A stretch of DNA of 64,000 bases from an uncultured Alphaproteobacteria bacterium (GCA_963803575.1 CAWDMW010000002.1:1080406-1144405); one strand, 5' to 3'; shown: positions 1-38,301, numbered from the stretch's first letter. Made by a program: numbers and translations. Notes: generated from the letters alone by a model not told the origin.

Positions 1-530
1 GATGTGATTGAGGGTGAATTTGAGGGCTTGGGCAAAACCATGGAAGGCACGCATGGCCGATGCGCTCGATGGCATTAGTGGCCGCTTTGATAGTTTTGGT
101 GATTTTGCCAAAGGCTTCCTATCTGATCTGAATCGTCAGTTGCTGCAATTTGCGCTGAAGGATTTAGGCATCACCGGTGAAGGCGGCATCATTGAGGGCA
201 TATTTGGCTCCATCGGCGGCCTATTTAAAGGTGGCGGTGGTGGCGGTGGCATCGGCAGTCTGCTTTCCAGCGCAGCAAGCCTCTTCGGAGGCTTTTTTGC
301 TGATGGTGGCACGCTTAAAGCCTGGTCAATTCGGTGTGGTTGGTGAGCGTGGCCCGGAGCTGGCATTTGCTGGCAATCGCCCATGCACATCATGCCGAAT
401 GGCTGGCATGTCGCCTGTATCGGTCACCATGAATATCAACACACCGGATGCGCAGAGCTTCCGTCAAAGCCAAAGGCAGATCGCCGCTGATATGGCGCGG
501 TCGATTGATCGTGCAAGGAGGAATCTATGA
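1..530 (+). CDS. Tail tape measure protein, C-terminal part (frameshift near 318)
   Basis: Gly-rich segment, then GFFADGG and (other frame) VVGERGPE ... [23 protein letters not shown], the typical C-terminus of GTA-like tape measure proteins. Confidence 0.85.
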
Positions 531-1565
531 TGCAGGAAACTTATTTCTCGTTCGATTGGAAAATGCTACCAGCGAAAGCATCACTGGCACTTCAACAAGC
601 ACCCCAACCACCGTAGCTAGTGCCGCGCCGGAGTGTAGCCCGAACAGGCTAATTGCTACCGCAACGGCCAGCTCGAAGAAATTGGAAGTGCCTATGAGTG
701 CTGCAGGTGCAGCGGTAGTAAATGGTACACGCCAGAGATATGCCCAGCCATACGCGATGAAGAATATGCCGTAGCTTTGGATGAGTAGCGGTATGGCGAT
801 CAGCGCAATCACCATTGGCTTGTCGATGATGGTTTGTGCCTGAAAGCCAAATAACAAAACGACAGTGGCAAGCAATCCCATGATGGAGAATGGTTTTACT
901 TTGGCAGTGAAGCGCTCGATGCGCTCATGGTTTCCAGAGTGATCCAGCTTTTTGCGGGTAACGTATCCGGCAGCTAACGGAATGACGACATATAGAATAA
1001 CGGAAAGGAGCAACGTTTCCCACGGCACGACGATATCCGTCACACCGAGCAGGAAAGCGGCTAGCGGAGCAAAGGCGAAGATCATGATGATGTCATTGAT
1101 TGACACCTGTACCAACGTGTAATTGGCATCGCCCCGCACCAGCTGGCTCCAGACGAATACCATCGCAGTGCATGGAGCGACACCGAGCAAAATCATTCCG
1201 GCTATATATTCCTTGGCGGTTTCGGGTGCGACCAGTCCGGCGAAGATATATTCGAAAAACAGCACACCGAGTGCCGCCATCGTGAAAGGTTTTACCAGCC
1301 AGTTGATGACGAGCGTAATGCATAGCCCTTTGGGTTTTCGGCCTACGTCCTTGATACTGGCAAAATCGACATTAACCATCATCGGGTAGATCATCACCCA
1401 GATGAACACGGCGACCACAAGGTTGACGCTGGCATATTCCAGCCCTGCAATGGTTTGGAATATGGATGGTACGGCAATGCCAAGGCCGACACCTGCAGTA
1501 ATGCACAGTGCTACCCATAAGGAAAGATAACGCTCAAATAAACCTAAAGGAGAATGTTCAGTCAT
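525..1565 (-). CDS. acr3: ACR3 family arsenite efflux transporter
   Basis: [24 protein letters not shown] and [12 protein letters not shown] motifs; multi-TM protein. Confidence 0.95.
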
Positions 1566-1972
1566 AATAACTCTGTTTCGATCCGTTGTTTTAATAAGTT
1601 AAATGCCTCCTCAAAGGCGGCGTTTATGTTGTCTTCTGTGCCTGTCGCTTTGGCAGGATCAGGGGTACTCCAATGCAGCTTTTCATGTTTACCAAGAAAT
1701 GCAGGGCAGCTTTCAGCAGCGGCAGCATCGCAGACGGTAATCACCAGATCAAAATGCTCATTTGCAAACTCATCCCATGATTTGCTGCGCGGTTCATTGA
1801 TATTGATGCCGTGACGTTGCAGTGTTTCGATGGATTTCGGATGCACGTAACCGGCTGGTTTGCTTCCGGCGCTTACGGCTTCATAACGCCCCGCAGCGAG
1901 TACATTGATCAGCGCCTCGGCCATGATGGAACGGCAGGAATTGCCAGTGCAAAGAACAAGGACTCGTTTCAT
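1562..1972 (-). CDS. arsC: Arsenate reductase, LMW-PTP/thioredoxin type
   Basis: CTGNSCRS P-loop and VITVC...ESCP. ATG at 1972 overlaps the upstream stop (TGATG). Confidence 0.92.
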
Positions 1973-2181
1973 CAGCAGCACCCATGATTTTGTTGAATAG
2001 GAGGGCATTTAACGCTGCCATAGGAACAGAATACACAGCAATCACCTTGCTTGGGCTTTAGTAATGCATGGCAATTAGTGCATTCATAAAAATACTGGCA
2101 AGCATCGGTGGGCATGGTTTCCCCCTTTTGATGGCTGCATTCAGGACAAGTGATGATGGATTGTAAGATTGGATTTGTCAT
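1972..2181 (-). CDS. GDCCVxC domain-containing Cys-rich protein
   Basis: ITCPEC, CQYFYECTNC, GDCCVFCSYGSVKCPP. Confidence 0.9.
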   Translation of the reverse strand: MTNPILQSIITCPECSHQKGETMPTDACQYFYECTNCHALLKPKQGDCCVFCSYGSVKCPPIQQNHGCC

Positions 2182-2534
2182 CGTAATGCCCTGATTAAAC
2201 CTGGCTCAATCTGTGGCCAGATAATGGCTATGCCGATCAGCAATACAGCAATAATCGTTAGAATAACCATGCCAGTCTTTTGCTTGGGCGTATCTCCGCA
2301 AGGCTCACAAGCAGTCTTACGATTGCGCCAATACACGTAGCCACCAATAGCTAAGGTAAGAATGGAAGCTGCAATGAGGTACGGACGAAACGGCTGTAAT
2401 ACAGCCAGGTTAGAAAGCCATGCACCGCCAATACCGAGATTAAATAACACTAAAGGGATGACACAGCATGACGCACCAATAACAGCGGTGATGGATGCTA
2501 CAATACTACTGATGATGGGAAGTTTGTTTTTCAT
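2178..2534 (-). CDS. MerT-family mercuric transport-like membrane protein
   Basis: ASCCVIPL..LGIGGAWLSNL..LQPFRPY, three TMs and a cytoplasmic CxxC. ATGA overlap with arsR. Confidence 0.8.
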   Translation of the reverse strand: MKNKLPIISSIVASITAVIGASCCVIPLVLFNLGIGGAWLSNLAVLQPFRPYLIAASILTLAIGGYVYWRNRKTACEPCGDTPKQKTGMVILTIIAVLLIGIAIIWPQIEPGLIRALR

Positions 2535-2902
2535 GACGCCTCCTTGTTGGGGCAGCATGTTTCAAGCAACTCAATGGTGGTTTTGCCTGTTTTGTTATCC
2601 TCATGCATACAGACGAAATTAACGGCACAGCAATTTTCTACCATGTAACGGATGAGTTGCTGTGTTAGCGCATAATTGGCCGAGTAGATCATGCTCCGGC
2701 CATTTTTTTGTGCTTGGATTAACCCTGCTTCACATAAGTGGGCAAGGTGAAATGACAATGTGTTGTGCGGCATTTTTAGCCTCTCACTCATGGCTCCGGC
2801 GGCTAACCCCTCTGGGCCAGCCACGGCAAGCATCTTGAATGCTTTGAGTCGTGTTTCGTGAGCAAGAGCAGCAAATGCCTTAATTGAAGTATCTAAATCC
2901 AT
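2531..2902 (-). CDS. arsR: ArsR/SmtB family repressor with C-terminal CC motifs
   Basis: ALAHETRL, TLSFHLAHL, GRSMIYSANY, ENCC and ETCC. Confidence 0.9.
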   Translation of the reverse strand: MDLDTSIKAFAALAHETRLKAFKMLAVAGPEGLAAGAMSERLKMPHNTLSFHLAHLCEAGLIQAQKNGRSMIYSANYALTQQLIRYMVENCCAVNFVCMHEDNKTGKTTIELLETCCPNKEAS

Positions 2903-2937
2903 TCGTCCATAATAATGGACATATTATAACTCGTCAA
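2903..2937 (-). promoter_or_regulatory. arsR promoter and operator, probably leaderless
   Basis: Minus strand reads TTGACG-N17-TATTAT-N6-ATG. Inverted repeat GTCCAT-N4-ATGGAC (2905-2920) overlaps the -10. Confidence 0.7.
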
Positions 2938-2973
2938 GGATTCTCGACGTATTAAATTACAGGATTGATTATT

Positions 2974-3642
2974 ATGAGTTTTGAAGAAGTACAGTTCCCC
3001 AGCGACATTTCGTATGGTGCAACCGGTGGGCCGATGTTTTTAACCGATGTGGTGGCAACCGTATCCGGCCATGAGCAGCGCAATAGTAAATGGCAGCAAT
3101 CACGCGCTAAATACAATGTGGCTTCAGGTATTAAAACCGAGTCGCAATGGCAGGCGCTGATTGCCTTTTTTCGTGCGCGGCGTGGCCGGGCGATCGGCTT
3201 TCGTTTCAAGGATTGGAGTGATTACAAAGCTGAAAACCAACCGCTTAAATCGCTGGGTGGCAATGACTACCAGCTGGTTAAACAATATGTCAGCGGCGCG
3301 GTGGTGTATGAGCGCGATCTTACCAAGCCTGTGGCCGGAAGCGTCAAGCTATATGCCGATAGTATTTTGCAGGCCAGCGGCTGGAGCATTGATACCGAAA
3401 CCGGGATCATCACCACCAGTATTTCCGGCACGCTAACGATCGACTGTGAGTTTGATGTGCCTGTGCGATTTGATACCGATGAGATGGCCATTTCTATGGA
3501 TAGCTTCGATGCGGGTAATTGGAGCAGCATTCCGCTGATTGAGGTGCGCATTTGTCGCGGTGATGATCGTCCATTGGCGAGCTCATCGCCGAAAGCGGAT
3601 CGACAGGATGTACCAGCTCAGATACAGCACCACAAATTTTGA
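2974..3642 (+). CDS. DUF2460/TIGR02217 distal tail protein (RcGTA g12-like), C-terminally extended past the usual end
   Basis: FEEVQFPSDISYGATGGPMFLT, FFRARRGRAIGFRFKDWSD, EFDVPVRFDTD, IPLIEVR. Confidence 0.92.
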   Translation: MSFEEVQFPSDISYGATGGPMFLTDVVATVSGHEQRNSKWQQSRAKYNVASGIKTESQWQALIAFFRARRGRAIGFRFKDWSDYKAENQPLKSLGGNDYQLVKQYVSGAVVYERDLTKPVAGSVKLYADSILQASGWSIDTETGIITTSISGTLTIDCEFDVPVRFDTDEMAISMDSFDAGNWSSIPLIEVRICRGDDRPLASSSPKADRQDVPAQIQHHKF

Positions 3643-3894
3643 AGGATCAAAGCGGGTAGTGATGATTGATGCAAGATGGTGATGATCAGGTGGTGTCATA
3701 AGGTAGCACCGTCATAGGTCAGCATCAAGTTAATGAGATTGCCACTGGTTTCATGCCATGCGGCATTCCGAAACAGCCGCATGATCAGCATATCATATTC
3801 ATAGCGGATAGGCAAAGTAACCGACTAGCAACCCGCATAGCAGCAGGAACTTAATCAGCACTTGTTTCTGTGGTTTGATCGTAGCGTTCAACAT
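3552..3894 (-). pseudogene. Garbled remnant of a hypothetical membrane protein
   Basis: ATG at 3894 gives MLNATIKPQKQVLIKFLLLCGLLVGYFAY, then multiple stops and shifts. Later fragments read LSIRF/GDEL/HHRD. Candidate promoter TTGCAT-N16-GATACT upstream. Confidence 0.55.
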
Positions 3895-3943
3895 GGCGGC
3901 GAGTATCTAACAAAACGCAGAAAATGCAAGGATTTACAATTTT

Positions 3944-4808
3944 ATGAGAGTGATTTCACCACAGCTTGAAGCCCACTTTGCAGGCGGCATGACGACGCTT
4001 GCAACTTGCTGGCGGATTACCCGGCAGGATGCGGTAGAGGTTGGTTTTACCGACCATGATCTGCCGATCACCTTCGACAGCGTGTTGTATGATTCTATTG
4101 CTGGCTTTACCCCCACCACGGTGGAGAGTAAATCCAATATGTCGGTCGATAATCTCGATGTGGAAGGTCAGGTATTCCCTTCAAAAATTACCGAGGAAGA
4201 TCTGCTGGCGGGTTTATATGATTATGCCGAGATTGAGATATTCCTCGTCAATTATAACGACCTTACCCAAGGCAAGCTGGTGGTCAAACGTGGTCGCCTC
4301 GGTGAGGTGACGCTCAATAGCCAAATGTTTCAGGCAGAGGTGCGCGGCCTTACGCAGCATCTATCGCAAACCATCGGTCAGGTGTTCTCTCCCTCTTGCC
4401 GCGCCATCTTGGGTGATAGTAAATGCAAGGTGGCGCTGGCTTCTTTTACCGTCTCAGCGACGGTGACGGAGGTGGTGAATAATCAAACCTTCAAAGCCTC
4501 CACGCTCTCACAAGATGCAGGATGGTTTACAGGTGGCGAGGTGCTGTGGACATCGGGCAATAATGATGATCGCCGGATGGAGGTGAAGGAATTCGCTTCC
4601 GCGCAGGTGGTGTTGGCGCTGGCCGATGGGCAAATCAGTACAGGTGGGTGATACATTCGACATCATCGCCGGGTGCGATAAGACCCGCGAAACTTGTCAG
4701 AGCAAATTTACAAATATTCTCAATTTTCGTGGTGAGCCGGATGTGCCGGGAACGGACAAGCTGCTGACCACGGCTGGAACATTCAACAAAGGCAATCCAA
4801 ATGGCTAA
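3944..4808 (+). CDS. DUF2163/TIGR02218 baseplate hub (RcGTA g13-like), frameshift near 4620
   Basis: TTLATCWRITR..GFTDHD, CRAILGD..C, and in another frame AGCDKTRETCQSKFTNILNFRGEP. Confidence 0.9.
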
Positions 4809-5287
4809 AATTAAACCAGAGCAGATTACCGCGCAGGCGCGTACATGGCTGGATACGGCCTATCACCACCAAGGGCGGCTTAAAAAAAGCGCCAAAGGCA
4901 ATGGTGGCGTCGATTGCCTTGGGCTGGTGATTGGCATGATCGATGAGCTGGGCATGCAGGATGGTGATGGCAACCCGCTGGTGAATGCGGATGAGTTTAA
5001 TTATTCGATGTATCCGGAGCGTGGCCGTTTGGTGGGAAGCATTTCCAAGCATCTGCTGCGAAGTGCCGATCGAGAAAATGCGCGTGGGTGATTTACTGCT
5101 GTTTCGCACATTCAAAGACCCGCAGCATGTGGGGCTGCTTACCGACTACCCTAGCGGTGGGCCGGGCCTCATTCATTGCAACTCCAGCGCTGGCAAGGTG
5201 GTGGAGCAACCGCTTTCTATGACGTGGGTGCGCATGCTGACGCATGTGTATCGCTTCAAAAACAAACAACTGAAATCGTTAAAGTAA
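4801..5287 (+). CDS. Phage NlpC/P60 tail peptidase (RcGTA g14-like), frameshift near 5055
   Basis: ARTWLDTAYHHQGR, GVDCLGLV, then GDLLLF..PQHVG..LIHC in the next frame. Confidence 0.88.
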
Positions 5288-5288
5288 T

Positions 5289-8200
5289 ATGGCTGATATT
5301 GTTCTTCCTGTCGTCGGTGGTGTCACTGGCTTTGTGCTGGGTGGCCCTTCGGGTGCTATCTTGGGCGCAAATCTTGGTAGCACCGCTGCCGGGCTGTTCT
5401 TCCCAAAGTCGCAGCGCGTGCAGCTACCTACTCAGGAAGGCCCACGGCTGGCTGATTTGCGTGCGCAAACGGCCACCTACGGCAATATGATCCCAAAGGT
5501 CTATGGCACGATGCGCTTGGCAGGTAATGTCATCTGGTCGACTGATTTAAAGGAGGTGAAGGTTGAAACAACCAGCACGCAAACAGCTCCGGCGGTGGCG
5601 GTAAAGGTGGCGGCGGTGGCGGATCGGTCACGACCAGCCAAACCAGCGTCACTTATGAGTATTTTGTCACGCTGGCCATTGCGATATGCGAAGGGCCGAT
5701 TGATGAGGTGATCCGGGTTTGGGCCGATAGCAAGGTGCTAACTGAAGATGTGCTGTCCTCTGCCCAAGGTAAATACAACGTCCATCTCGGTACTGAGGAT
5801 CAGATGGTCGATGATATCATGGCCAAATATTTAACCGCAGGCACCATCCCTGCCTATCGCGGCATGGCTTACGTGGTGATTGAGGATTTCCCGCTGGGAG
5901 CCTATGGCAATCGCATTCCAAACTTTACGTTTGAGGTGCGCCGCACGCTTCGCTTTACGCCATCGGTCGAGGATAAAATTACCGATGTGGTGATGATCCC
6001 CGGCGCGGGTGAAATGGTCTATGGCACGGATGTGCAGACCAAGCAGGATGGTTATTTTGATGCGTATCAAGGCGGCATTTTTGTGCCTAACGCGGATAAA
6101 AACTTCATCAACATGCACAATTACGAGGGTAAGGCTGATGCGCTGGTGGCGATTGATCAGATGATGGATGTGCTGCCTAATCTTGAATGGGTGGCGATTT
6201 GTGGTGACATGGTTTGCCACCTCCACCGATGCCGGGGCATGCGAGATTGTGCCAAAGGTAGAGTTTCAAGGCTCGACGCAGGTGTTGCCGCAGGATTGGA
6301 GCGTGGCAGGCATTGGCAGAACACGCTGCGCAGGTGGTACTAAAGTTTGATCCGGAAACACCAACCTATGGCGGCACGCCTTCTGACCATACGGTGGTGC
6401 AGCTGGTTGATCACCTGAAAAGCAAAGGCTTGAAGGTGATGCTGTATCCGATGCCGTTTGTGGATACGATCACTCCGGTACCAAAGCCATGGCGCGGACG
6501 TATTATCCCTGCCAATGCTACCGATGCTAATAGCTGGTTTACCAAAACTAATGGCTATAATGCGTTTATTAGCCATTATGCCAATCTGGTGAAAAACAAA
6601 GTGGATGCGTTTGTCATCGGCTCGGAGCTAATTGGCATGACCGGCTTTACCGACTCGTCCGGGCAGCTATCCGGCGGTGAATCAGCTGGTGTCATTGGCG
6701 GCGACCGTTAAAGGCATCATGGGCGCTGGTACCGATATTACTTACGCTGCCGATTGGTCTGAATATCACAGCACCGATGGCTGGTTTAACCTTGATCCGC
6801 TCTGGGCTTCACCGAATATCGATTTTGTGGGCATTGATAGCTATTTTCCGCTGACGGAAGATCTGCCGCAGATCCAAATTACCGAGGAATTGATCAAGGA
6901 ATATTGGGAAGCTGGCGAAGGTTGGGATTATTATTACACCGACTCGGTGGCTCGTACTGGCCAAACCAGCTATGGCGGCGATGCAACATTTGCATGGAAA
7001 AACCTAGAATATTGGTGGAAAAATACCCACACCAATCCGGATACCAACACCACAGCTTGGACTGCCAAGATGAAGCCAGTGTGGTTTACCGAGTTCGGCT
7101 TTCCCTCCGTGGATGGTGCAGCTAACCAGCCTAATGTGTTTTATGATCCGACCAGCTCGGAGAGTTTCTTACCCTCGTGGCAGTCCAAAGGCCGGGTGGA
7201 TTTTCAGGCGCAGCGTGAAGCGCTCAATGCGACGCTGGATTACCTCGATGCACGCGAGCAAGAGGCTGGCAATACCGGGCTGGTGGCGCGGCGTTTCCTA
7301 TGGACGTGGGATGCGCGGCCATTTTCCTTTTGGCCTGATCTGGAAGGCGTGTGGCAGGATTCTATTCTGTGGGCAACCGGGCATTGGGTGCAAGGCAAGC
7401 TGGGCAATTCCACGCTTGGTGCGGTGGTGGCCGAGCTGCTGCAACAGCTGGGCTTACCGCAAGCGATTATGATGTAACCCGCCTGCTTGAAACGCTGGAG
7501 GGCTTTATTCTGGATCGCCCGATTACGGTACGCAGTGCGCATGGAGTATCTGACCTCGGCGTTCTTTTTCGATATCGTCGAGAGCGATGGCATTTTGAAA
7601 TGCGTGCCGCGTGGCAATGAATCGGTTAAAGCGGTGCCGGAGGACGACCTTATTCCTTCTAAGAAGAAAGGTGTGCAGGATGTGCTGGAGATTAATTACG
7701 CGCAGGAGCTGGAGCTGCCGCAGCGGGTGAATGTGACCTATCTGGATCGGCCTTTTAATTATGATCCGGTCACGCAAACCTCGCAGCGTCAAACGGTACG
7801 TGCGGTGGATCAGGTGAGTATGAGCCTGCCAATTGTGATGGGTGCAACTCGCGCCAAGCAGATCTCCGACATTACGCTTTATGGCACATGGAAGGAGCGC
7901 ATTAGCTTTGCGCTAACATTGCCGCCGAAATATGTGCGCATCGAGCCTACGGATATTATTACGGTGACGGTCAATAATGTGCCGCATGAAATGCGCGTGC
8001 TGAAGACCAATATGGAAGCCAATGGCCTGATGAAGGTCAATGCGGTGGCGGAGGATATCAGCTCCTATGATTTCTACACCCCGCCGGGCGAGACCAGCTC
8101 GACATTGGAGCCGCCAACGCTAGTGCCTGGTACTATCGGCAAAGTTTATCGATGCACCGCCATTGCCTAGCGATAACGTCCCCAATCAGGGGTTGCTTCG

Positions 8201-9056
8201 CATTGGTGTGGCGGCAGATGGCGCACAGTGGCAAGGCGCTGCTATCTATCGCTCCGATGATGGTGGCGAGGCTGGTGGCAATACCTTCACCTTGCTTGCC
8301 GGGATGGATGGCGCGGCCACTTTTGGTGCGCTTACCACGGCGCTGCCTGCAGGCCCGTATGAGGCGTGGGATGATATCCACGAGGTGGAGGTTATTTTAA
8401 CCTCTGGCTCCTTGGCTTCGGTGAGCGAGCTGGGTGTGTTTAATGGTGCTAATGCCGCATTAATTGGCAATGAGCTGGTGCAATTTCAAAATGCGCAGCT
8501 GATTGGTGAGAAAACCTACAAGCTATCGCGGCTGTTGCGTGGCAGGCAAGGCACCGAATGGGCAATGGAGCATGTTTCCGGCGAGCCATTCGTGCTGATT
8601 ACTCCAGCGCTTTACACCACCACGATCGCCAATAATTCGATCGGGCGTGAGCTTTACTACAAGGTGGTGAGCGTGGGCAATAGCCTCGGCAATACCGATG
8701 AGGTGCCGTTTACCTATACCGGGCGCAATTTAAAGCCGTATGCTCCGGTGCATGTGGCTGGCCTGCGTGATGGCTCTGGCAATCTAAGCGTAAGCTGGAT
8801 TCGAAGGTCGCGGGTGGATGCTGAATGGCGCGATGGTGTGGATATTCCGCTGGGTGAGGAATCGGAGCGTTATCAGGTCGATGTGCTGGATGGCTCGGAT
8901 GTGGTGCGCACCATTGAGGTGACCAGCCCGGCGGCAAGCTATAGCGCTGCCGATCAGGTGGCGGATTTTGGTTCGGCGCAAAGCGCGATCGATATCAAGA
9001 TTTACCAGATGTCAGCCGTGGTGGGCCGAGGCTATGCGGCTGCGGCCACTTTATAA
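5289..9056 (+). CDS. Baseplate 'megatron'/host-specificity protein with GTA TIM-barrel-like domain (RcGTA g15-like), split by several frameshifts
   Basis: Consecutive overlapping ORFs carry EGPRL, YGTMRLAGNVIW, PAYRG, YGGTPSD, FVIGSEL, TYAADWSEY, WTWDARP, LLRGRQGTE and WIRRSR. Confidence 0.88.
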
Positions 9057-9079
9057 TTTAACACTAATTGGAGAATATT

Positions 9080-9790
9080 ATGTCCCAGACCGGAAGGCTG
9101 GGCCTGCCGTATATTATTACGGCGCAGGCTCAAAAAGAAGTAACGCATAATGAGGGGTTAAATCGCCTCGATGCGTTCGTTACGCCCGTGGTGGCCGATA
9201 TTGCCAATGCTCCACCGGCTAGCCCGACCGTGGGTGATCTCTATATTGTAGGTGCACAGTCGCCCACCGGGGATTTTGTCTGGCTCAGGCAAATAAGCTG
9301 GCGCAGTATCTCACCGGGGGCTGGGTGTTTTATACGCCGTTTCAATGGATGGATGCGGTGGTGGAGGAAACGCAGAGCCGCATGGCGTGGGATGGCACCG
9401 CATGGGTGCCGTTTGGCCTTATTATGCGCGATAGCGGCGAGTATGCACGCGTGCTGCGTTGGCAGGAGGATATTGATCTTTCTGGCGACGACGCAAAGCG
9501 TTACCAACATTCCCAATCGCTCGACGGTGCTGGCGGTCAATACGCGGGTCATCACGGCGCTTACCGGAACGGTCGGCAGCTTTGGTGTGGGCGTGTCCGG
9601 CGACACCTCGCGCTATGGCAATGGCATCGGCACCGGGCAGGATTCAACCAATATCGGGCTTACCTATCATCCGGTGAGTTATTACAGCGATACCCCGGTG
9701 GAGATCACGCCCGATAGCGGCAGCATCACAGGCGGTGTGGTGCGAGTTAACGTGCAATATATGGCCTTCCGTGGGCCTTGGAATTGGTAA
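9080..9790 (+). CDS. DUF2793 domain tail fibre protein (frameshifted)
   Basis: LGLPYI..AQAQKEVTHNEGLNRLD and PP..P..GDLYIV. Confidence 0.85.
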   Translation: MSQTGRLGLPYIITAQAQKEVTHNEGLNRLDAFVTPVVADIANAPPASPTVGDLYIVGAQSPTGDFVWLRQISWRSISPGAGCFIRRFNGWMRWWRKRRAAWRGMAPHGCRLALLCAIAASMHACCVGRRILIFLATTQSVTNIPNRSTVLAVNTRVITALTGTVGSFGVGVSGDTSRYGNGIGTGQDSTNIGLTYHPVSYYSDTPVEITPDSGSITGGVVRVNVQYMAFRGPWNW

Positions 9791-26510: not shown

Positions 26511-26517
26511 TCTACAA

Positions 26518-30037: not shown

Positions 30038-30197
30038 CCTGCGCCTCTGTCTTTTGTGTTTGCTTTCCTTTATGTGGTTTTTCGTTATTGCTGCAGCATG
30101 ATCGTGGTTGCTTTGGCTTCACTTCAACCGTTTCTGTTTTTGGGTTGCAGCAGCAACCACTATTGGTAGTTTCCTTTTTATTATCAATACTATTCAT
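30024..30197 (-). CDS. 57-aa Cys-cluster peptide (not in ORF track)
   Basis: MNSIDNKKETTNSGCCCNPK...RSCCSNNEKPHK...; AGGAG RBS and ATGA overlap with the MerR stop. Confidence 0.65.
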   Translation of the reverse strand: MNSIDNKKETTNSGCCCNPKTETVEVKPKQPRSCCSNNEKPHKGKQTQKTEAQDDRA

Positions 30198-30616
30198 TGT
30201 TTCTCCTTATTGTATAAAAATCCTATAAACGGGCATTCGCGGGTTGGTACCTGACCGCCGGGGCAGTCATGCGCGAAACGTTGCAACGCATCTAAAGCTA
30301 ATTGCGTGTCGGACAGTTCGGTTTGAAAGGCAGTAATTTTATCCTCCACCATAGCCAACACCTCGCCGCATACGGCATCATCGCTTTCGGACATAGTGAG
30401 CAGCGTTTTTATTTCCTCCAACGTAAAATTAATGACCTTGGCACGCTTGATGAAGAGTAGAATATTCAGCGTGTCCTGAGTGTAGACGCGATAGCCATTG
30501 GCGGCACGCTCAGGCTTTCCGAGCACGCCCATTTTCTCGTAATAGCGGATGGTGTCGGTTGAGAATCCGCTGATATTCGAGAGCTTACCTATGGTGATGT
30601 AATTGTTTTTACTCAT
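30194..30616 (-). CDS. MerR-family metal-responsive regulator (ZntR/CadR-like Cys set)
   Basis: TIRYYEK, NGYRVY, FTLEEI, AVC, CPG...ECP. Confidence 0.9.
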   Translation of the reverse strand: MSKNNYITIGKLSNISGFSTDTIRYYEKMGVLGKPERAANGYRVYTQDTLNILLFIKRAKVINFTLEEIKTLLTMSESDDAVCGEVLAMVEDKITAFQTELSDTQLALDALQRFAHDCPGGQVPTRECPFIGFLYNKEKQ

Positions 30617-30627
30617 AATATCTCGCA

Positions 30628-30659
30628 AGCCTACACCTTGGAGTGTACTCCAAGGTCAA
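30628..30659 (-). promoter_or_regulatory. MerR-type promoter with 20-bp spacer and dyad operator
   Basis: Minus strand TTGACC-N20-TAGGCT. Perfect inverted repeat ACCTTGGAGT-gt-ACTCCAAGGT at 30635-30656. Confidence 0.9.
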
Positions 30660-30667
30660 GCCTCTTT

Positions 30668-31006
30668 TTATAACCACTTCATTATTTGTTGGTGCAGTAG
30701 GTATCCGATGGGCAGCAAGACCACGCCAACAGCATAGGTTCCCCAAAAGCCCAGCTCCCATTTTCCGTTAAAAAAGAACGGCAGGAAAAACAGCCATGAA
30801 ATCGGCACTGCAATCATAATGCTCCTCGCATATTGAGAGGTCGTCTCTGCGTCCTGATATTGAATGTAGGAAAAGGCGATCGCCAGAATTGACACCAAAG
30901 GCAATGCTGTAATGAAACCTGCCAGCTCTGGTTTTTTCCCTGAAAGCCAAGATGCTCCCATGATCACGCTTACGGCTATCGTTAGTTTTGTGACGGTCAA
31001 TAACAT
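30668..31006 (-). CDS. DUF3147-like small membrane protein
   Basis: K.P.LAGFITALPLVS pattern; about 4 TMs. Confidence 0.65.
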   Translation of the reverse strand: MLLTVTKLTIAVSVIMGASWLSGKKPELAGFITALPLVSILAIAFSYIQYQDAETTSQYARSIMIAVPISWLFFLPFFFNGKWELGFWGTYAVGVVLLPIGYLLHQQIMKWL

Positions 31007-31009
31007 GGC

Positions 31010-31294
31010 TTATCCCTCATCTTTTTCGGAGGTTGAGCCACCCACCAGCTTATTGCACAGGCCGTTTGGCACTTTGATCCATTCGTTCGGGTCGCTATCT
31101 GCTTTGGCCATGGTAGCGCAGGAATGCTTATTGGCTTTGCTGGCACAGTCATTCTTGCCCGCTTTGACCACGCCATAGCATTTCTCCATCCCGTCGCCCT
31201 TTTTGGGTTCCATATGGGCGCTGGCATCCTGAATGCCTGCCAAGGCAGCGGTTAACATACTGGCTGCGGTTAGAAATTTGGTTTTATTATTCAT
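31010..31294 (-). CDS. DUF2282 / BufA1-type bufferin precursor-like protein
   Basis: Signal peptide, then EKCYGVVKAGKNDC..HSCA..EWIKVP.GLC.KLVGGS. Confidence 0.85.
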   Translation of the reverse strand: MNNKTKFLTAASMLTAALAGIQDASAHMEPKKGDGMEKCYGVVKAGKNDCASKANKHSCATMAKADSDPNEWIKVPNGLCNKLVGGSTSEKDEG

Positions 31295-31760
31295 GATGAT
31301 CTCCTGTTGGTGGGTTGATGGGAAAATGAATGTCCCAGAGTTTTTGCACAGCAAAATAGCTAAACATCACCGACCAGCCGATCAGCATCAGGCCGTTTAA
31401 GACCTGCACGCCTGTGATGAATTGCATGATGCCGTGTGGAAAAACATCGCCAATCCCAAGCGATGAATAAGTGGCGGCTGAAAAATAGATGTAGCCGAAG
31501 AAATTATCGTGAGCGATGCCGCTTAATGGCTCCGCGCCGAAAATATGCACCATCACCCAATAGACGGTGCCATATATCCAGACCGCGATGGTGTGGGCCG
31601 AAAAGATGCCCACCACCAACACGAACATCAACGCACGATTGCGAAGATTATGCTTGGCGATCACCTTCAAAATCAGGCCAAGCATTTCATAGAAAATGGC
31701 GGTGGTGATAAGCACCAATGCCACGCTAATGAGGATGGCGATATGCATGTTCTCGTACAT
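31287..31760 (-). CDS. Potassium-channel-like (Ion_trans_2) small membrane protein
   Basis: YFSAATYSSLGIGD pore-loop-like motif; TAATG coupling to cusA. Confidence 0.8.
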   Translation of the reverse strand: MYENMHIAILISVALVLITTAIFYEMLGLILKVIAKHNLRNRALMFVLVVGIFSAHTIAVWIYGTVYWVMVHIFGAEPLSGIAHDNFFGYIYFSAATYSSLGIGDVFPHGIMQFITGVQVLNGLMLIGWSVMFSYFAVQKLWDIHFPINPPTGDHHE

Positions 31761-34700
31761 TACGCGGCCTCCTTGCTATCCGTGGTGGGGCTGCGGTATT
31801 GCCTGCCTTCCCACATGGTGTAGACGACCGGGATCACGATCAGGGTTAAGATGGTGGTGGTGATCATGCCGCCGACCATCGGTAGCGCGATACGGCGCAT
31901 CACATCCGCGCCCAAGCCCATCAAAGATGAAGATGGGCAGCAACCCGGCAAATTCGGTGATGACCGTCATCAGCACCGGGCGGATACGCATCAGCGCTCC
32001 TTCATGCACCGCTTGGCGCGTAAGTCTCGGCCATGTTGGTGGGGTTGGTTTCGCGCACCCGCAGATCAATATAGACCATCATGATGGCAGCGGTTTCGAC
32101 CGCCAAGCCACCCAGCGCAATAAAGCCTACGCTTGCGGCCACCGACAAATTATAGTCTGCCAAATACAGCGCCCACATGCCGCCGACCAAGGCAAATGGT
32201 AGCGATAGCATCACCATGGCGGTGCGATCTGACCCGGCCAAAATAGACCATCAGCAATATGAAGATGGCAAAGATGGCGGCGGGAATGGCAATATTTAAT
32301 TGCGCTCTGGCTTCCAGCATCTGTTCAAACTGGCCTGACCATTCAACGGCATAGCCTGCTGGTAGTTTGACCTTTCCTGCCACCACGCCCTGCGCTTCAT
32401 CGACGTAAGAACCAATATCCCGGTCGGCGATATCGACAAACACCCAGCCGGTCAGCCGTGCGTTTTCCGATCTTGATCATCGGTGGGCCTTCGACAAATT
32501 CAATGCTGGCCAGCTCTGCCCAACGGGATATGCTGGCCTTGCGGCGTGGGGATCGAGGATATCGGCTAAATCTTCCGGATGCTCGCGAAAGGCTCGCTCA
32601 TAGCGCAGCATGATGTTATAGCGCTCACGCCCTTGCACCGATTCGGAGATCTTGCATGCCGCCCAGTGCGGTTTGAATGACCCGCTGGAACATGCCCAAA
32701 TCAATATTCTGCCGTGCCAGCTCGTCACGGTTGGGCGTGATTTCCAAATACTTCCCGCCAATCACGCGATCGGCAAACGCCGAGCGCGTGCCTTCCACAT
32801 CTTTTACCGCTGCTTCCACATCCAGTGCGATTCGGCTGATCTCATTGAGATCTGCGCCGGATATTTTAATTCCCACAGGCGTGCGGATTCCGGTGGAGAT
32901 CATATCCATGCGAATTTTAATCGGATAGCCCCAGCTATTGACCACACCTGGCATTTTTACGGTTGATCCAGCTCTTTGGTGAGCTGTTCGACATCCATGC
33001 CATCACGCCACTCATCTTTGGGTTTGAGCTTGATCCAGCTTTCTATCATGGTAATCGGCGCGGGATCGGTGGCGGTGTCGGCGCGGCCCACCTTACCAAA
33101 TACATGATGCACTTCCGGCACCGTTTTAATCAGGCGGTTGGTTTGCGCAATATTTCCTTGGCTTTGGTGATCGATACACCCGGCATGGTGGTGGGCATAT
33201 AGAGCAGCTCACCTTCATAAAGCGCTGGCATAAATTCAGAGCCGGTGCGTGCAGATCGGCACCGCCATGCTGACCAGCAACACGCCTGTTAAAATGAGCG
33301 TGAGCTGGCGTTTGCCAGCACCTTGGTGAGCAATGGTTTGTAAAAACGCAGCAAGGCGGCGTTGATTGGGTTTTCCTCGGCGCGTCTAATTTTGCCGCGC
33401 ACCAGCCATAGCATCAAGCATCGGGATTACCGTGATCGACAGGATGGAGGCAAAGCCTAGCACGTAGGTTTTGGTAAATGCCAAGCGGCGAGAACATACG
33501 ATAGGATTGCCCGGTTAGCGCCAAGACCGGCAGGAAGGATACGGTGATGATCAGCAGTGAGAAAAATAGACCCGGCCCGACCTCTTTGGCGGCTTGAATG
33601 ATGGCCACATTGCGTTTTCGTCGCGCAGGCATTATCATCCAGTTCCGAGAGTTTACGGTGGGCATTTTCGACCATGACAATCGAGGCATCGACCATCGCA
33701 CCGATGGCAATGGCGATCCCGCCGAGCGACATGATGTTGGCGGTGATGCCTTGCGCTGACATGACAATGAATGCACCGAGCACACCAAGCGGTAGCGTGA
33801 TGATGGCTACAAACGCCGAGCGCACATGCAGCAAGAATATGAGGCACTACCAAGGCCACGACGATACCTTCTTAATCAGTGTGGTGGTAAGATAATCGAC
33901 CGCACCTTCAATTAGCGGGGCGCGATCATACACTGTTTCAATTTCCACGCCTTCAGGCAGGCCGTTGTGCAGTTCATCGAGCTTGGTTCTTTACGCCTTG
34001 GATCACGATAGAGCATTTTCACCGGAGCGCATCACGACTATGCCGCCAACCACTTCACCTTCGCCGTTTAATTCTACCACGCCACGCCGCAGCTCCGGCC
34101 CTTCAATGATGCGTGCGACATCGGATAGCACCACAGGCGTGCCACTTTTGGCGTAGACCACCACTTTCTCTCAGTTCTTTCAGATTGGTGATATAGCCTT
34201 TGGAGCGGATCATCATCTCCATTTCGCCTTGCTCAATCACGCGGCCACCCACTTCCTGACTTGCGGCTTTTACCGCAGCGACAATGCGGTGCAGTGGCAC
34301 GTCATAGGCACGCAGGCGGTTGGGATCGACCAGCACCTGATATTCTTTGACAAAGCCGCCCACGGTGCGACTTCGGATACACCTTCGACGGTGGCCAGCT
34401 CAAATTTTAAAAACCAATCCTGCAGGGTGCGAAGATAGGCCAGGTCATGCTTGCCGGTTCTATCGACCAGCGCATATTGATACACCCAGCCGACGCCGGT
34501 GGCATCGGGGCCAATTTGCGGCGTGGCATTATCCGGCAGATCTCCTTGAATTTTGGAGAGCGCTTCAATGACTCGGCTTCGCGCCCAATATTGATCCACG
34601 TTATCTTGAAAGATGATATAAACAAATGACGAGCCAAACATTGAAAAACCACGCACATCCTTGGTCTTTGGCAGACCCAACATGGTGGTGGATAAGCGGG

Positions 34701-34953
34701 TATGTGACCAAATCCTCGACAATCTGCGGCGACTGGCCTGGGAAATCGGTACGGATGATCACTTGCGTATCGGACAGATCGGGGATGGCATCGAGCGGGT
34801 GTTTTGACCGCAAAATCCAGCCTGCCACCAGCATGGCTACCACAGCCGACGATCACCAGCAGCTGGTTGCCCACCGACCATTCGATAACCTTGGCAACGA
34901 ATGATTCGGTAGGATCATGGTTTAAGTGCTTGTCTTGCTTAGTGGTTCTGCAT
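31760..34953 (-). CDS. cusA: CusA-type Cu/Ag RND permease, heavily frameshifted
   Basis: [48 protein letters not shown] and [11 protein letters not shown] in successive fragments; start approximate. Confidence 0.88.
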
Positions 34954-36619
34954 GCGCACCTCCTGCAGGTGCGTCACCGTAGGAGCTTCGGCATCTATTT
35001 TATCGGGCAATTCCACTTCTACCGCATGGCCGCCACCATAAGGATGCGCCATCTCACCGTTTAAGCTGCAGCCAGTGATTGCCGGTGCCGTGATCCAAGA
35101 TAGAGCTTGATGCCTTTTTGTTTATAATGCTGTCGGCTTGCCTTCCATGATCCACGGCTTTAAGGCGATGACCAGCTCGGCCATGGCCTGTTGCTGTTCC
35201 TCCTCGGTGATGGATTCATTTGCTGCCATCAGCGCTTTTTCAGCATCCTGCAAAATGAATTGCAATTTGGTGCCTCGGAATTTTGGCAGCAGATGATCAT
35301 TGAGCTTTAGCGCTGGCATGAGCATCTTGGCATCCATATCCGCATCGGTGGTTTGCGTTTCGTGTAAATACAATGCGGCATCGATGAGATGATCGATCAT
35401 CGACTGCTGATCTTTGCTTATCTGCAGCAGCGCCAGCGGCGTTTGCACCTTCTGCAATTTGCGGAAGGATTCGCGCAAGGAGCTTTCCGAGTCGATCAAA
35501 AATTGGCTGCTGACCACCACCTGTTCGCCTGCGGTGATGCCGCGTGTTACCTCGGTGCGGCCTTTATTGCTAATGCCCGTTTGTATCTTTTGCGACTGGA
35601 ATTTACCCTCGCCGAGAGCAACCACTACAAAATCACCTTCCGAGCTTTTTAAGATCGCCTCGGAGGGGATGCTTAGGCGTTTATCGATATCGGTTTCAAA
35701 GGTGACATCGGCATACGCGCCGGGGCGCAATGTGCCATCTTCATTACTCCAGCACCAAGCGCACCTGTCCGGTACGGCTATCGGGGTCGATGGTCGGGTG
35801 GATATAGTCGATGCGTGCGGTGCGCTCGGTATTGCCTAAATTGGGAAAGCTCACCGTTGCTTTGCTGTTTTCCTCTAAAAAGCGTAGGTCTTTTTCGGCC
35901 ACGCTGACATCAATCCACACGCTGCTATAATCCTGAATGGTGGCAATTTGCATGCCGGGTTTGACGTAGCTGCCTTGGTTGACCATAAGGTGGCTGACGA
36001 TCCCATCCGTTTCCGCGTAAAAAGGCAGATTCTCTAATTTCTTTCGTGAGCTACGGATTTGCGCGATAGCCTTGCTGCCTGCACCGAGGGATTTTAACCG
36101 CTTGGCGCTGGAGGCAATACGGCCTTTAATGCCTGTGGCGATGGCGGCGATATAATCCTGCTGGGCCGAGATCAAATCGGGGCTGTAAAGCGTAAAGAGC
36201 AGATCGCCTTGTTTCACTTCATCGCCCACGGCGGTGATGTTTAGCGCTTCAATCCATCCGGCGACGCGGCCTGAAATGGCATGGGTCTGGCGCACATTTT
36301 CGGTGACCAGGCCATAGCTTCGCACGTCATTGCCAAACAATGCCATGGTCGCGTTTTCGCTGCGCACACCGATATTTTGAATGGTTTGCGGCGCAATGGT
36401 GATGATGGTGCGTTTATCGGCATCCTGCTCGCCATTATGGGCGCTATGGTCTTCTGCCTCACCGCCCTCCATTAGTACCAAATCCATGCCGCAAATCGGG
36501 CAGCTTCCCGGCTCGCTGGCAATATAATGCGGGTGCATGGGGCATGTGTATTGCTCGGCGGCTAAGGCCGGGCTTGCGGCCACCAGTGCGATGACCATTA
36601 ATAGTTTAATTATTCTCAT
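34950..36619 (-). CDS. cusB: CusB-type adaptor with N-terminal YTCPMHP domain and C-terminal extension, frameshifted
   Basis: YTCPMHP..CPICGMDL, YSPDL, SSQFLIDSESSLR; end approximate. Confidence 0.85.
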
Positions 36620-37832
36620 GGCTATCTCCTATGATGTGGCTGTTAAATTCGGCGCTTAAGCGGATATGGCGGCTTTTCATGCTGGCCAATTGCGAGGCGA
36701 TGGTTAGCTCGTCAATTTGTGCATCCAACATCGTCTCCAATGGCGCATTGCCGGATTCGTAATTGCGGTTGGCGGCTTTGACCATTTGCCGCAAGGCCGC
36801 TTTCTTTTCTTCCAGCAGCTCGATGTTATCGGCGGCAATATCACGCTCGGCTTTTAGTGCGGCCATGCGTTTGATCCAGTTCACGCTTGGTATCCTCCAG
36901 CGCAAATTCGGCGCTGCGTTTGCCTGCTTCGGCGGCACGCAGGTGCGGCTTTTGATTGGATTCATACCAAAGCGGGATGGAGATGGTGGCTTGCACGAAA
37001 ACCAATCATCGCCTCTAAAGTTGCTGCCCGACTCGCGTTGTTTATAGATCGCTTGCACACCGTAATTTGGGTTAAAGGCGGCATCGGCGGCATCCACATC
37101 CTGCTGGCGGCTGGACTTCTTTATTAGCAATGCGGACGGGATAAAGCGCATCCGCTTCGCGCTGCCATGTGATGTCGGCCTGCGCGGGGATGGTTAGCTC
37201 CGGCACTTCTCCCACCAATCGGATTAGTTCTTGCTTCGACCGCCACGCGCTCGGCTTTTAGATCGTTTAGGCGTTGTTCTAAATCGGTGCGCTCGACATC
37301 AATTTCGGAGAATCGGCCATAGACCGGGTTGCCTGCCTCCAGCTGACCTTTTAAATCATCCTCCATCGATCGGTAATATCCGAGCTGGCGCTTGGCTAAT
37401 TTCTCCAGCGTGGTGACTGTGTCCAATTCAGTCATCTGCGATATTAAAATGGCTCGCAGGCGCTTCTTGGTATAGTCGGCCAGCAGCTTCTGACGCTCGG
37501 ATAAGCGTCTCCTGCTTGTCAGATTTTGCCTCGCGCAGCTCGTAGCTGGGGATTTGCTGTTTAAACCCAAACACCTTCGAGGTTGGCAAAAAGCGATCAA
37601 AGGCCGGGTCTTCTATCGGCATGTTATCGACGCCAACGATCAGCTGCGGGTCAGGCAGGCTCATTTCAGCATCGGACAGCTCACGCAGCCGCGTGCTCTG
37701 TTCTAATATGGTGGTTACTTGGGGATGCTCCGCCAAACGCTGGGTGTAAACCTCTAGCGTTTCGGCCTGTGCTGGCGCAACCCCTGTGGACATGGCCAAT
37801 AAAGCCAATGCCCAAAGGCGTTTCTTAATCAT
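36606..37832 (-). CDS. TolC-family outer membrane factor (CusC-like), frameshifted
   Basis: Signal peptide, LPDP, NYESG; operon position upstream of cusB. Confidence 0.8.
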
Positions 37833-37917
37833 GATATTCTCCAAAGTTAATGGCGCGGATCGGCTGCAAAAAGGCGCAGCTATCCAGCGTTAAAGGCGCA
37901 CCGCTGGTGCGAAAACT

Positions 37918-38301
37918 CTAGGAGATGTGTTTGGGAGGGTTATCGATGCCAAAAGCGATGTTCGAGATAAGAATATCGCTGGTTGGCAGATGCATATCAC
38001 TGCTGGTCATCACCGGGGATGCCGCAGGATTGTTTAAAAGTGAGGTTTGTGATGGGACTTTGCAATGACCGCAGCCACATTTATCGCAATTGGCCTGCTT
38101 GCTGTCATCATCACTGGTTTGCTCGGCTTCGGCCTTATCCATACCATGGCATGGCATATCGGAGTTCATTTCCTGTTTGGCTTCAGCGCTCATGTCGGGG
38201 CAGTTGCATGCAGCCATAGCGGTGGCCGCGACCGCATTCAATGTGAATGCTGCCATTATCATAATGATAAATATGCGTTTAATTTGCCTCATGCGTATCA
38301 T
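37918..38301 (-). CDS. Exported Cys-rich leader protein (CutF/CopL-like)
   Basis: Signal peptide, CNC, MPCH, CDKCGCGHC, C-terminal DNPPKHIS. Confidence 0.7.
   Translation of the reverse strand: MIRMRQIKRIFIIMIMAAFTLNAVAATAMAACNCPDMSAEAKQEMNSDMPCHGMDKAEAEQTSDDDSKQANCDKCGCGHCKVPSQTSLLNNPAASPVMTSSDMHLPTSDILISNIAFGIDNPPKHIS

Follow-up and report, generated by a model that had tools for sequence, protein, structure and literature searches.

How does a phage tail and lysis operon come to be broken, at one gene junction after another, by genes that run against it? The question is raised by a 64,000-nucleotide (nt) stretch of DNA from an uncultured Alphaproteobacteria bacterium (GCA_963803575.1 CAWDMW010000002.1:1080406-1144405), here called the window, in which all positions are counted from the start. 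A preliminary description had read this stretch as a prophage resembling a gene transfer agent (GTA) that a systematic, junction-precise process of gene capture had turned into a vehicle for metal resistance and defense. Our analysis leads to a different reading, to which we give a probability of roughly three in four: the window would hold ~45 kb of an integrated temperate siphophage of ~58 kb (hereinafter, copy W), and the interruptions of its late operon would result from ordinary moron insertion by illegitimate recombination, followed by selection at overlapping genes and then by exchange among related phages.

A listing of open reading frames (ORFs) and Pfam scans revealed a plus-strand tail and lysis operon, whose phage genes are here named g12 to g16, broken at gene junctions by genes on the minus strand. 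The four interruptions given in the preliminary description are confirmed by the ORFs, by the Pfam matches, and by the points at which similarity to paralogs breaks off. (i) A set of ars genes (525 to 2902) lies between the broken 3' part of the tape measure protein (TMP) gene (1 to 530; the last open piece, 177 to 530, ends ...AAT CTA TGA) and g12 (2974 to 3642; DUF2460, Pfam match at 3e-64). The TMP 3' end of W is homologous to the 3' ends of the 634- to 638-amino-acid (aa) TMPs of the copies B, C, and D described below, and Pfam TMP_3 matches the intact TMP of copy B. (ii) A decayed, noncoding remnant of a membrane protein cassette (3550 to 3943) sits at the ATGA overlap of g12 and g13 (3944 to 4651; DUF2163 baseplate hub). 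(iii) The gene for a PD-(D/E)xK nuclease-like protein of 460 aa (12176 to 13558; the ORF of 481 aa runs from 12176 to 13621, with the start probably at 13558) separates the GTA-type holin gene (11655 to 12179) from an intact 146-aa phage lysozyme gene (13639 to 14079; Pfam, 8e-41). The three-transmembrane holin is matched by Pfam GTA_holin_3TM at 4e-4, below the cut-off, and it lies beside the lysozyme in kin too. (iv) An 859-aa helicase gene (14071 to 16650) follows the lysozyme gene and heads a long bay of cargo.

The interruptions can be read against close relatives in the same cell. The 2.30-Mb genome, in two contigs, has six DUF2460 loci, four of which are collinear phage-like elements with 70 to 80% nt identity: W in the window, B and C in tandem at 1.17 to 1.27 Mb of contig C2 (G000:C2:1170566-1273465), and D at 1.62 to 1.66 Mb. 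In blastn comparisons with B, C, and D, the similarity of W breaks at 530|2974, 3554|3943, 12166-72|13639, and 14079, i.e., at the insertions, which are therefore true insertions relative to kin. The nearest backbone in our collection, locus L105 (84 to 94.5% nt identity), has empty junctions; it is without the ars genes, the remnant, and the 460-aa gene, as well as a SASA-esterase tail accessory gene, and its alignment with W breaks at 530|2979, 3549|3943, 9789|11327, and 12166|13639. Public metagenome contigs, matched at 90% identity or more, bridge three of the insertions of W: 530 to 2979 (contigs from X5 and X7), 3549 to 3943 (X1), and 12166 to 13645 (X7). The 530-to-2979 joint of X5 and X7 has GTGA between its two sides, restoring an ATGA-coupled junction. 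An X5 contig also matches 13597 to 17000 with two differences. At most 22% of the sampled words occur in any one sequencing run, and parts left uncovered by these contigs (e.g., 2269 to 2835) are not evidence of absence.

We surveyed the junctions in 69 loci, comprising the 4 copies of this genome, 22 genome loci (mostly in metagenome-assembled genomes [MAGs] labeled "Rickettsiales bacterium"), and 43 IMG/VR viral contigs, and counted a junction as occupied when the gap between its phage genes exceeded 200 nt. The gaps are bimodal, measuring either from -8 to ~70 nt or from 279 to 4,005 nt. Counted in this way, with related loci included, the TMP|g12 junction is occupied in 25 of 54 loci, g12|g13 in 13 of 65, g13|g14 in 10 of 65, g14|g15 in 3 of 59, g15|g16 in 11 of 39, and holin|lysozyme in 10 of 32. 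Seven of the ten occupied g13|g14 junctions come from a distant clade and hold one recurring pair of sense genes (clusters 2 and 3), which is probably part of the backbone there. The gap between g16 and the holin gene was tried as a further cargo site and dropped from the counts, being filled in 33 of 33 cases by phage genes (fiber-like proteins and a small holin partner). At the six junctions retained, 124 cargo ORFs form 68 clusters, 45 of them antisense and 23 sense. The antisense orientation that the preliminary description had stressed thus holds for all the cargo of W at its late junctions and, as a bias, for the cargo families (45/68), but with about one-third of the families in sense orientation, it is not a rule. 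That description had also proposed that, if related prophages were aligned, some should have empty junctions and others different cargo at the same junctions; both are seen in the paralogs, in the MAG and viral contigs, and in the metagenome contigs.

The cargo of these junctions is diverse. At TMP|g12, copy B carries an antisense type I cyclic-oligonucleotide-based antiphage signaling system (CBASS; PADLOC matches to the cyclase at 1e-91 and to a Cap15-type two-transmembrane effector at 3e-32), and at g15|g16, it carries an antisense gene of 257 aa. Copy C has an antisense RelE toxin with a helix-turn-helix (HTH) antitoxin at g13|g14 and a sense MntP gene at g15|g16, and the corresponding junctions of copy D are empty. 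Named cargo elsewhere in kin includes Fic (alone or with an HTH partner), ChrA, CsoR/RcnR with HupE/UreJ and DUF6488, GDT1, TauE, TerC, a Na/H exchanger, glyoxalase, SieB, GrpB, DUF3800, and DUF4268, along with ParDE-like and HigBA-like pairs that were named from their sequences by eye only. In its content of metal/ion resistance and defense genes, the cargo is as the preliminary description had it. Different cargos have leaders in common, and locus L023 and copy C keep leader scars without cargo. Genes thus lie between neighbors that are adjacent in related phages, as is characteristic of morons, in the paralogs, in 65 related loci, and in the metagenome contigs; the conserved flanks, differing cargo, and known defense systems (CBASS, PDC-S28, SieB, Fic, RelE, ParE-like proteins, and type I restriction-modification) are those of an accessory hotspot.

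The ars cassette of W records more than one event. On the minus strand, it comprises an intact 346-aa ACR3-type arsenite efflux permease (525 to 1565; Pfam SBF, 4e-43), a 148-aa arsenate reductase (ArsC) of the low-molecular-weight phosphatase type (1562 to 2008; LMWPc, 1e-21), a 69-aa Cys-rich ORF (1972 to 2181), a 126-aa MerT-like membrane protein (2178 to 2558; MerT, 4e-15), and a 123-aa ArsR-family regulator (2531 to 2902; HTH_20 and HTH_5). A divergent leader of 71 nt and 69% A+T (2903 to 2973), with the inverted repeat GTCCAT-AATA-ATGGAC, separates the regulator from g12. The ArsR-type HTH protein, ACR3, and phosphatase-type ArsC, on one strand with 4-nt overlaps, form a predicted ars operon, and ACR3 homologs of 88 to 96% identity carry that name in their source records. 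The MerT-like and Cys-rich ORFs are atypical inside an ars operon. Locus L106 has ACR3 alone, with a left junction identical to that of W and with the gene adjoining the leader of a Fic-HTH cassette, and in L111 the cassette is limited to the Cys-rich, MerT-like, and ArsR genes. ORF clustering, translation, and blastn agree that the Cys-rich ORF is common to W and L111, and in blastn comparisons, positions 1972 to 3554 of W correspond to L111, the 2903-to-2973 leader included. Because the two parts occur separately in L106 and L111, the ars "operon" of W is a composite of two cassettes; an X1 metagenome contig runs through TMP, ACR3, and ArsC and then diverges at 1977. As a separate observation, the MerT-like gene and the Cys-rich ORF (..GDCCVFCSYG..), at 1972 to 2558, have no MerA or MerP gene nearby. 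A promoter-like site occurs in the arsR leader (minus strand, 2937 to 2909), in a region where such sites are not above the expectation from shuffled sequence.

The joints are very close. The stop overlaps listed in the preliminary description were recovered as CTATGA at 525 to 530 (ACR3/TMP), TTAA at 12176 to 12179 (460-aa gene/holin), and TTAAGTTAA at 14071 to 14079 (helicase/lysozyme). An empty TMP|g12 site reads ...AGGAGGAAT CTA TGA GTT..., with the ATG of g12 within CTATGA; an empty g12|g13 site reads GTATGA, and an empty holin|lysozyme site reads ATGA or a similar sequence. At loaded TMP|g12 sites, TMP keeps ARRNL and then TGA, TAG, or TAA, and nothing is conserved upstream of the ATG of g12. 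In W, the final codon and stop of ACR3 are the reverse complement of the TGA and CTA of TMP: the nearest ACR3 homologs end in ..KFPA at 345 aa and that of W in ..KFPAS, the gene having lost its own stop alone and borrowed TCA-TAG from the antisense of TMP TGA-CTA. Antisense cassettes carry their leader, of 45 to 110 nt, at the promoter end and lack 3' DNA; sense cassettes lie 70 to 180 nt away, with hairpin-T terminators directly before g12. The fresh AT-rich leaders of the preliminary description are real, at 59 to 71% A+T against 46 to 49% in phage genes, except that some of those in W now precede pseudogenes, the prophage being defective.

Could a dedicated process have made these joints? 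A recombinase, or targeting guided by microhomology, might act on the stop/start overlaps (TTAA/CTAG and CTATGA) and place the newest cassette next to the upstream stop, which would amount to integron-like accretion without an integron integrase. The position of the cargo stops lends this some color: at 33 of 36 junctions, no more than 11 nt separate the antisense stop from that of the upstream phage gene, while in a control set of convergent ORF pairs outside the prophages of this compact genome, 92 of 280 are equally tight. Such stop-to-stop abutment is more than chance, with a high baseline and with 36 junctions that are not independent. At TMP|g12, cargos of about seven types all terminate on the last codons of TMP and in one frame, and ACR3 is short of nothing but its own stop; the cassette nearest the TMP stop is the newer one in W, L022, and L106, and the helicase likewise occupies the lysozyme-proximal end of the bay. 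Other observations speak against it. The cassette ends have no shared motif, repeat, or hairpin, and a repeat search of positions 1 to 46000 returned nothing beyond short matches of the kind that chance would give, without att-like or IS-like ends and without terminal repeats. The breakpoints vary inside the stop codon (TGA, TAG, and TAA are all kept), as expected from many events filtered by selection; one-third of the cargo families are sense with spacers of 70 to 180 nt; and tight convergent pairs are common in the genome anyway. The sole recombinase of the element is the serine integrase at its end. Pfam searches for rve, DDE_Tnp_1, and tyrosine recombinase domains gave no match in W (C2:1080406-1125600), and the four PF00589 matches of the genome, where an integron integrase would appear, are all outside W; the cassettes, moreover, carry their own leaders. 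No transposase domain was matched among the scanned W ORFs, which were picked from an 80-aa list, the other families of insertion sequences (ISs) not having been searched singly. The absence of a visible transposase, IS end, or integron integrase, noted in the preliminary description, is thus upheld, with no IS, tyrosine recombinase, or repeat explaining the insertions. For the systematic capture process that had been deduced, no evidence appeared, and selection alone predicts the precision. We consider both a capture device directed at junctions and accretion of the integron-like kind unlikely.

Moron insertion with selection, the reading that we prefer, would work as follows; the anatomy, the insertion sites, the variation among kin, and the decay are observed, and the mode of insertion, the expression from leaders, and the host benefit are inferred from them. 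The phages of this family have a lambda-type terminase, an RcGTA-like distal tail (g12 to g15), holin and lysozyme genes, a variable bay, early genes, and a serine recombinase, and their bare late genes overlap by ATGA or similar sequences. Morons would enter by rare illegitimate recombination, and because late genes have no spare DNA between them, only insertions in the few stop/start bases would survive. A surviving insertion would need to restore the upstream stop and the downstream start, which would give the look of precision. Antisense cassettes would keep a promoter leader of 70 to 90 nt facing the downstream phage gene, from which they would be expressed, and no 3' untranslated DNA, and new ones would tend to join next to the stop of the upstream gene. 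By recombination among related phages, several of which occupy one cell, cassettes would then be swapped, nested, trimmed, and lost. The cargo would serve the lysogen, through the handling of arsenic, chromate, Ni/Co, Mn, Zn/Cd/Co, and copper and through toxin-antitoxin pairs, CBASS, PDC-S28, SieB, and restriction-modification, and copy W has since died as a phage.

Several points weigh against this account. The loci are related and some are nearly identical (L112 and L113; L129 to L131; L029 is almost copy D), so that the counts overstate the number of independent events. Eleven of the 15 antisense cassettes found between TMP and g12 stop on the reverse strand of the last two TMP codons, and none extends deeper, while chance breakpoints with subsequent trimming should scatter more than is seen, ACR3 having lost only its stop. 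Avoidance of terminators was considered as the cause of the missing 3' DNA in antisense cassettes and rejected, since sense cassettes keep terminators directly before g12; in a scan for promoters and terminators, site counts were not above those of shuffled sequences, and no terminator-like site was found at 530, 12179, or 14079. The elements are also large: B, at ~63 kb, and W, at ~58 kb, may exceed the capacity of the capsid. Finally, IMG/VR contigs of relatives often end at the lysozyme gene, and predictors treat the bay as host DNA.

The two smaller insertions of W show the states of loading and decay. At g12|g13, the stop of g12 has been displaced by the insertion that follows, giving the protein a C-terminal extension of 29 aa, and kin align only to residue 196. 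The leader on the right of the remnant is homologous to that of L106 and L126, where intact antisense ORFs of 199 and 188 aa occur, and on this homology, 3550 to 3943 is taken to be a decayed copy of that 188- to 199-aa antisense cassette. The membrane protein remnant of the preliminary description is thus real. At holin|lysozyme, the 460-aa gene keeps its native ..SAA stop, which is found in L022 too, merged with the stop of the holin gene as TTAA. Its product belongs to a family with at least 981 homologs. It had no Pfam match in our scan, there was none in the precomputed column for 120 listed homologs, and it had no PADLOC match; a profile search of PDB sequences gave chance matches only. 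Across 27 sequences, D86, E103, and K105 never vary and follow a PDG...EAK pattern. The AlphaFold model (mean predicted local distance difference test value, 86) gave weak Foldseek matches to the restriction enzymes EcoT38I, BamHI, PaqCI, and MspJI (probability, 0.8 to 0.99; E, 4e-3 to 4e-2; TM score, 0.13 to 0.27), and the ESM Atlas returned unnamed clusters with a weak PDDEXK_4 lead. With the predicted structure and the conserved residues taken together, "nuclease-like" is a fair label, and the position of the gene suggests a role in defense. A small conserved sense gene of 93 to 120 aa (MSKLFYKAMIEDIQND...) was also noticed between the holin gene and the antisense cargo in nine loci, including L016, L021, L022, L026, L106, L112, L113, and L120; copies W, B, C, and D do not have it.

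The state of W itself invites the explanation that the cargo piled up after death, in a late operon no longer under selection. The TMP gene of W is in at least four pieces (182, 111, 120, and 117 aa), g13 encodes 235 aa (287 aa in the other three copies), g14 is likewise broken, and g15 lies in six frames or pieces. These breaks are decay and not sequencing error because the host genes of the window are long and open and the g15 genes of B and D are whole in the same assembly; judged by its genes, W is a dead (defective) prophage. The 29-aa extension of g12 caused by an insertion and the cargo-free state of L105, the nearest backbone, would fit late accumulation as well. The relatives speak against it. 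The late genes of copies B and D are intact (TMP, 634 to 638 aa; g13, 287 aa; g14, 155 to 162 aa; g15, 1,258 to 1,260 aa; in C, g15 is split once), yet B carries its CBASS at TMP|g12 and its 257-aa gene at g15|g16, and many viral contigs with full-length backbone matches are loaded at the same sites. In W, unlike what random insertion would give, the insertions spare all phage ORF boundaries but one, and the ACR3 junction is common to L106. We therefore regard postmortem accumulation as improbable. What has remained intact in W, namely, the ars genes, the nuclease-like gene, the helicase, and the czc module, is domesticated, and cargo makes up about half of the element (~29 of 58 kb).

The bay between the lysozyme gene and the early genes holds most of this cargo, all on the minus strand in W. 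The helicase (Pfam DEAD, ResIII, and Helicase_C_2) matches PADLOC PDC-S28 at an E value of 2e-109, with residues 2 to 818 on positions 4 to 810 of the 846-position model, and is a candidate defense gene; it is unique in the genome (tblastn), and its region has a G+C content of 0.42 against ~0.52 in the flanks. Intact genes for a cation diffusion facilitator (CDF), LspA, a second CDF, CzcA, CzcB, CzcC, and a 110-aa ORF follow at 16735 to 25014 (Pfam, blastn, and tblastn), with the CDF, LspA, and Czc genes taking up 16735 to 24574. The ACR_tran match of 1,069 bits, HlyD_D23, OEP, and the two CDF genes predict a CzcCBA metal-efflux role. This module is common to copy D (89.5% nt identity) and copy B (74%). 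The stretch from 25105 to 37844 is mostly decayed cargo, as judged by Pfam, with an SDF symporter in three pieces, a P-type ATPase in two, an amino acid permease in three, MerR, DUF2282, a K-channel-like ORF, a shattered second resistance-nodulation-division (RND) pump whose match contains internal stops, a CusB-like membrane fusion protein, and an outer membrane factor fragment. The last gene of the bay, a 127-aa ORF (37918 to 38301) without a Pfam or PADLOC match, has homologs of 46% identity in the bays of B and D (tblastn). A 30-nt direct repeat, 87% identical, at 16700 to 16729 and 26481 to 26510, immediately downstream of the CDF and broken P-type ATPase genes, was also observed and may be a common 3' element or a trace of module duplication.

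Among the four copies, the bay of B is the longest, at ~29 kb, followed by those of W (~24.5 kb), D (~15 kb), and C (~11 kb), and each is closed by homologous early genes and a serine recombinase. That of D has a multicopper oxidase, MauE/glutaredoxin, DUF305, and LysR genes and then the czc module, with CzcA and both CDF genes disrupted. That of B has czc genes, a multicopper oxidase, a histidine kinase, a split second RND pump, sulfatase/PAP2, LysR, and two IS (DDE_Tnp_1) copies; near the histidine kinase and the IS copies, at G000:C2:1192491-1193923, it has second copies of psd (phosphatidylserine decarboxylase) and pssA (CDP-alcohol phosphatidyltransferase), which represent either lipid-synthesis cargo or a sign of a composite bay. 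That of C has type I restriction-modification genes, an IrrE-HTH protein, and a SMODS enzyme. In other genera, L099 (genome G008) has a lysozyme gene, antisense CDF and czc genes, early genes, and a recombinase, in that order, and L101 (G013) and L102 (G033) have different cargo followed by early genes and a recombinase; in L098 (G025) and L100 (G036), the lysozyme gene is followed by antisense CDF and czc genes as far as the contig extends. The bays of L095 to L097, L103, and L104 were probed only with the panel of cargo from W, B, C, and D, and the few or no homologs recovered say nothing of their content. The preliminary description had taken the metal genes for an addition behind the operon; they fill a conserved bay in all four copies and in other genera, and from this distribution, the czc module is an old, traveling part of the phage family, not specific to W, next to a variable lysozyme-proximal end. 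The genome has five RND pump loci in prophage bays (two in W, two in B, and one in D), three of which are broken. Nine IMG/VR contigs (L106, L108, L109, L115, L119, L120, L123, L124, and L141) end exactly at the stop of the lysozyme gene, and automated prophage trimming appears to cut off the bay and the early genes of this family. That the helicase and the metal genes are not phage cargo at all, the prophage ending at the lysozyme gene beside a chromosomal island or a second element having been inserted, is improbable: the nine trimmed contigs, the many host-like transporter genes, the psd, pssA, and IS copies of B, and a czc identity between W and D of 89.5% against a backbone identity of ~73% would suit it, but the homologous early genes and serine recombinase beyond the bay in four copies, the boundary between the recombinase of C and the first gene of B, and the recurrence of the whole order in other genera do not.

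The remainder of W completes the picture of a temperate siphophage. The rest of g13, the NlpC/P60-like g14, and the host-specificity gene g15, all broken, occupy 4652 to 9056 on the plus strand, with GH113, GTA_TIM, Phage-tail_3, and Rcc01698_C matched by Pfam on separate ORFs. A minus-strand ORF at 4783 to 5115 was considered as cargo, its conservation in tblastn being merely that of the opposite strand of the g14 peptidase gene, and was rejected. A DUF2793 tail protein gene (9068 to 9790) and the SASA-esterase gene (9863 to 11320; Pfam, tblastn, and blastn), found among the four copies only in W and B, precede the holin gene, both on the plus strand. Beyond the bay, the plus-strand early region (38626 to 43327) has small ORFs, an S24 peptidase (40319 to 40816; a repressor or UmuD-like protein), and a replisome organizer with a DnaA_N domain (41477 to 42649); it has homologs at the equivalent place in B, C, D, L099, L101, and L102. 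A 537-aa large serine recombinase (43564 to 45177, plus strand; Resolvase, Recombinase, and Zn_ribbon_recom) is likely the integrase and the right end of the element. To its right, 45268 to 64000 holds host-like long ORFs of 929, 593, 735, 444, 319, and 935 aa.

The left arm is seen in copy B, which has a gpZ-like protein, a ParB-methylase, a lambda GpA-type terminase, a C5 methylase, a protease-capsid fusion, gpU, a tail tube protein, and TMP. The recombinase of C is followed within ~80 nt by the first gene of B, and the ends of the unit are therefore marked; element lengths are approximate and set by the limits of homology. The tandem looks as if B had integrated at the end of C. More distant tail or lysis relatives also occur in the genome, at C2:82094-82782 (a lone holin-lysozyme pair beside rve-type IS fragments), C1:242445-248775, C1:379391-382972, and C2:378180-379426. 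A GTA would be a head-tail cluster without integrase, replication, or immunity genes; this element has the serine recombinase, the DnaA_N organizer, the S24 peptidase, and four diverged copies, and by its gene content, it is a temperate siphophage with an RcGTA-like distal tail and not a GTA. Of the GTA-like character first proposed, the distal tail (g12 to g15) stands, and the GpA-type terminase and the repressor-like, replication, and integrase genes exclude the rest.

Together, the loci provide a natural series in which each of six junctions can be followed as empty, loaded, nested, scarred, or decayed, in some cases on backbones that are >90% identical. They show whole operons for metal resistance (ars, chromate, Ni/Co, czc, and copper), together with defense genes, to be carried by temperate phages in a marine alphaproteobacterial lineage with small genomes, with cargo amounting to as much as half of the element. 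Given the five bay-located RND loci, phage-borne traffic may shape metal tolerance in these bacteria, and prophage predictors that cut at the lysozyme gene overlook the cargo bay.

Among known systems, phage morons are the nearest; they are said to have been described by Juhala et al. and by Hendrix et al. in 2000. A further study (PMC10884400) describes morons in late operons. The likeness lies in extra genes, unneeded by the phage and often deviant in composition, between late genes that are adjacent in relatives, with a probable benefit to the lysogen. The differences are of scale and layout: six loaded junctions within ~11 kb of tail and lysis genes, in addition to a bay of 11 to 29 kb, take up whole operons (ars and Ni/Co), and the classic moron, with its own promoter and terminator and usually in sense orientation, fits only the sense cassettes here, the antisense ones having no terminator and zero 3' spacer. 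RcGTA has homologs of g12, g13, g14, g15 (GTA_TIM, Phage-tail_3, and Rcc01698_C), and the three-transmembrane holin; in contrast to it, the present elements have a GpA-type terminase, a serine recombinase, a replication organizer, an S24 repressor-like gene, and several diverged copies. The closest cultured phages, among them Microcystis phage Mwe-JY26, PhiJL001, and Paracoccus phage vB_PmaS-R3, have <50% identity to g13. As a side observation, the g13 match falls in two pieces over ~1.65 kb, against 0.86 kb here, in AY576273.1, ON529853.1, MT188704.1, and MH588547.2 (PhiJL001 and Brevundimonas, Mesorhizobium, and Caulobacter phages), which suggests an insertion or an extra domain inside g13 of those phages.

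Two other comparisons concern the cargo. P2-like phages and P4-like satellites are described by Rousset et al. (2022; PMC9122126) as having hotspots of antiviral systems, which resemble the present junctions in their fixed positions, exchangeable cargo, and defense content, which here includes CBASS, PDC-S28, toxin-antitoxin pairs, SieB, and type I restriction-modification. These hotspots differ in the phage family and host (here, a marine alphaproteobacterial MAG lineage), in that the present hotspots are inside a tail-tip operon, and in that more than half of the named cargo here is for ion or metal transport. Ten Paracoccus prophages with metal genes are reported in the available part of Decewicz et al. 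(2019; PMC6536676), among them an antisense ArsB within prophage structural genes (vB_PcoS_PD6 and vB_PsaS_PD20) and, in other prophages, ZntA, ZitB, CorA, TerC, AcrAB-type efflux, a Cu ATPase with a multicopper oxidase, and toxin-antitoxin modules. The arsenic permease there is ArsB, as opposed to ACR3 here, and that part of the text contains no comparison of empty and loaded junctions. The phenomenon is therefore a known one, that of moron and hotspot biology, and the phages described here are a dense example of it in a little-studied host lineage, with cargo unusually rich in metal genes.

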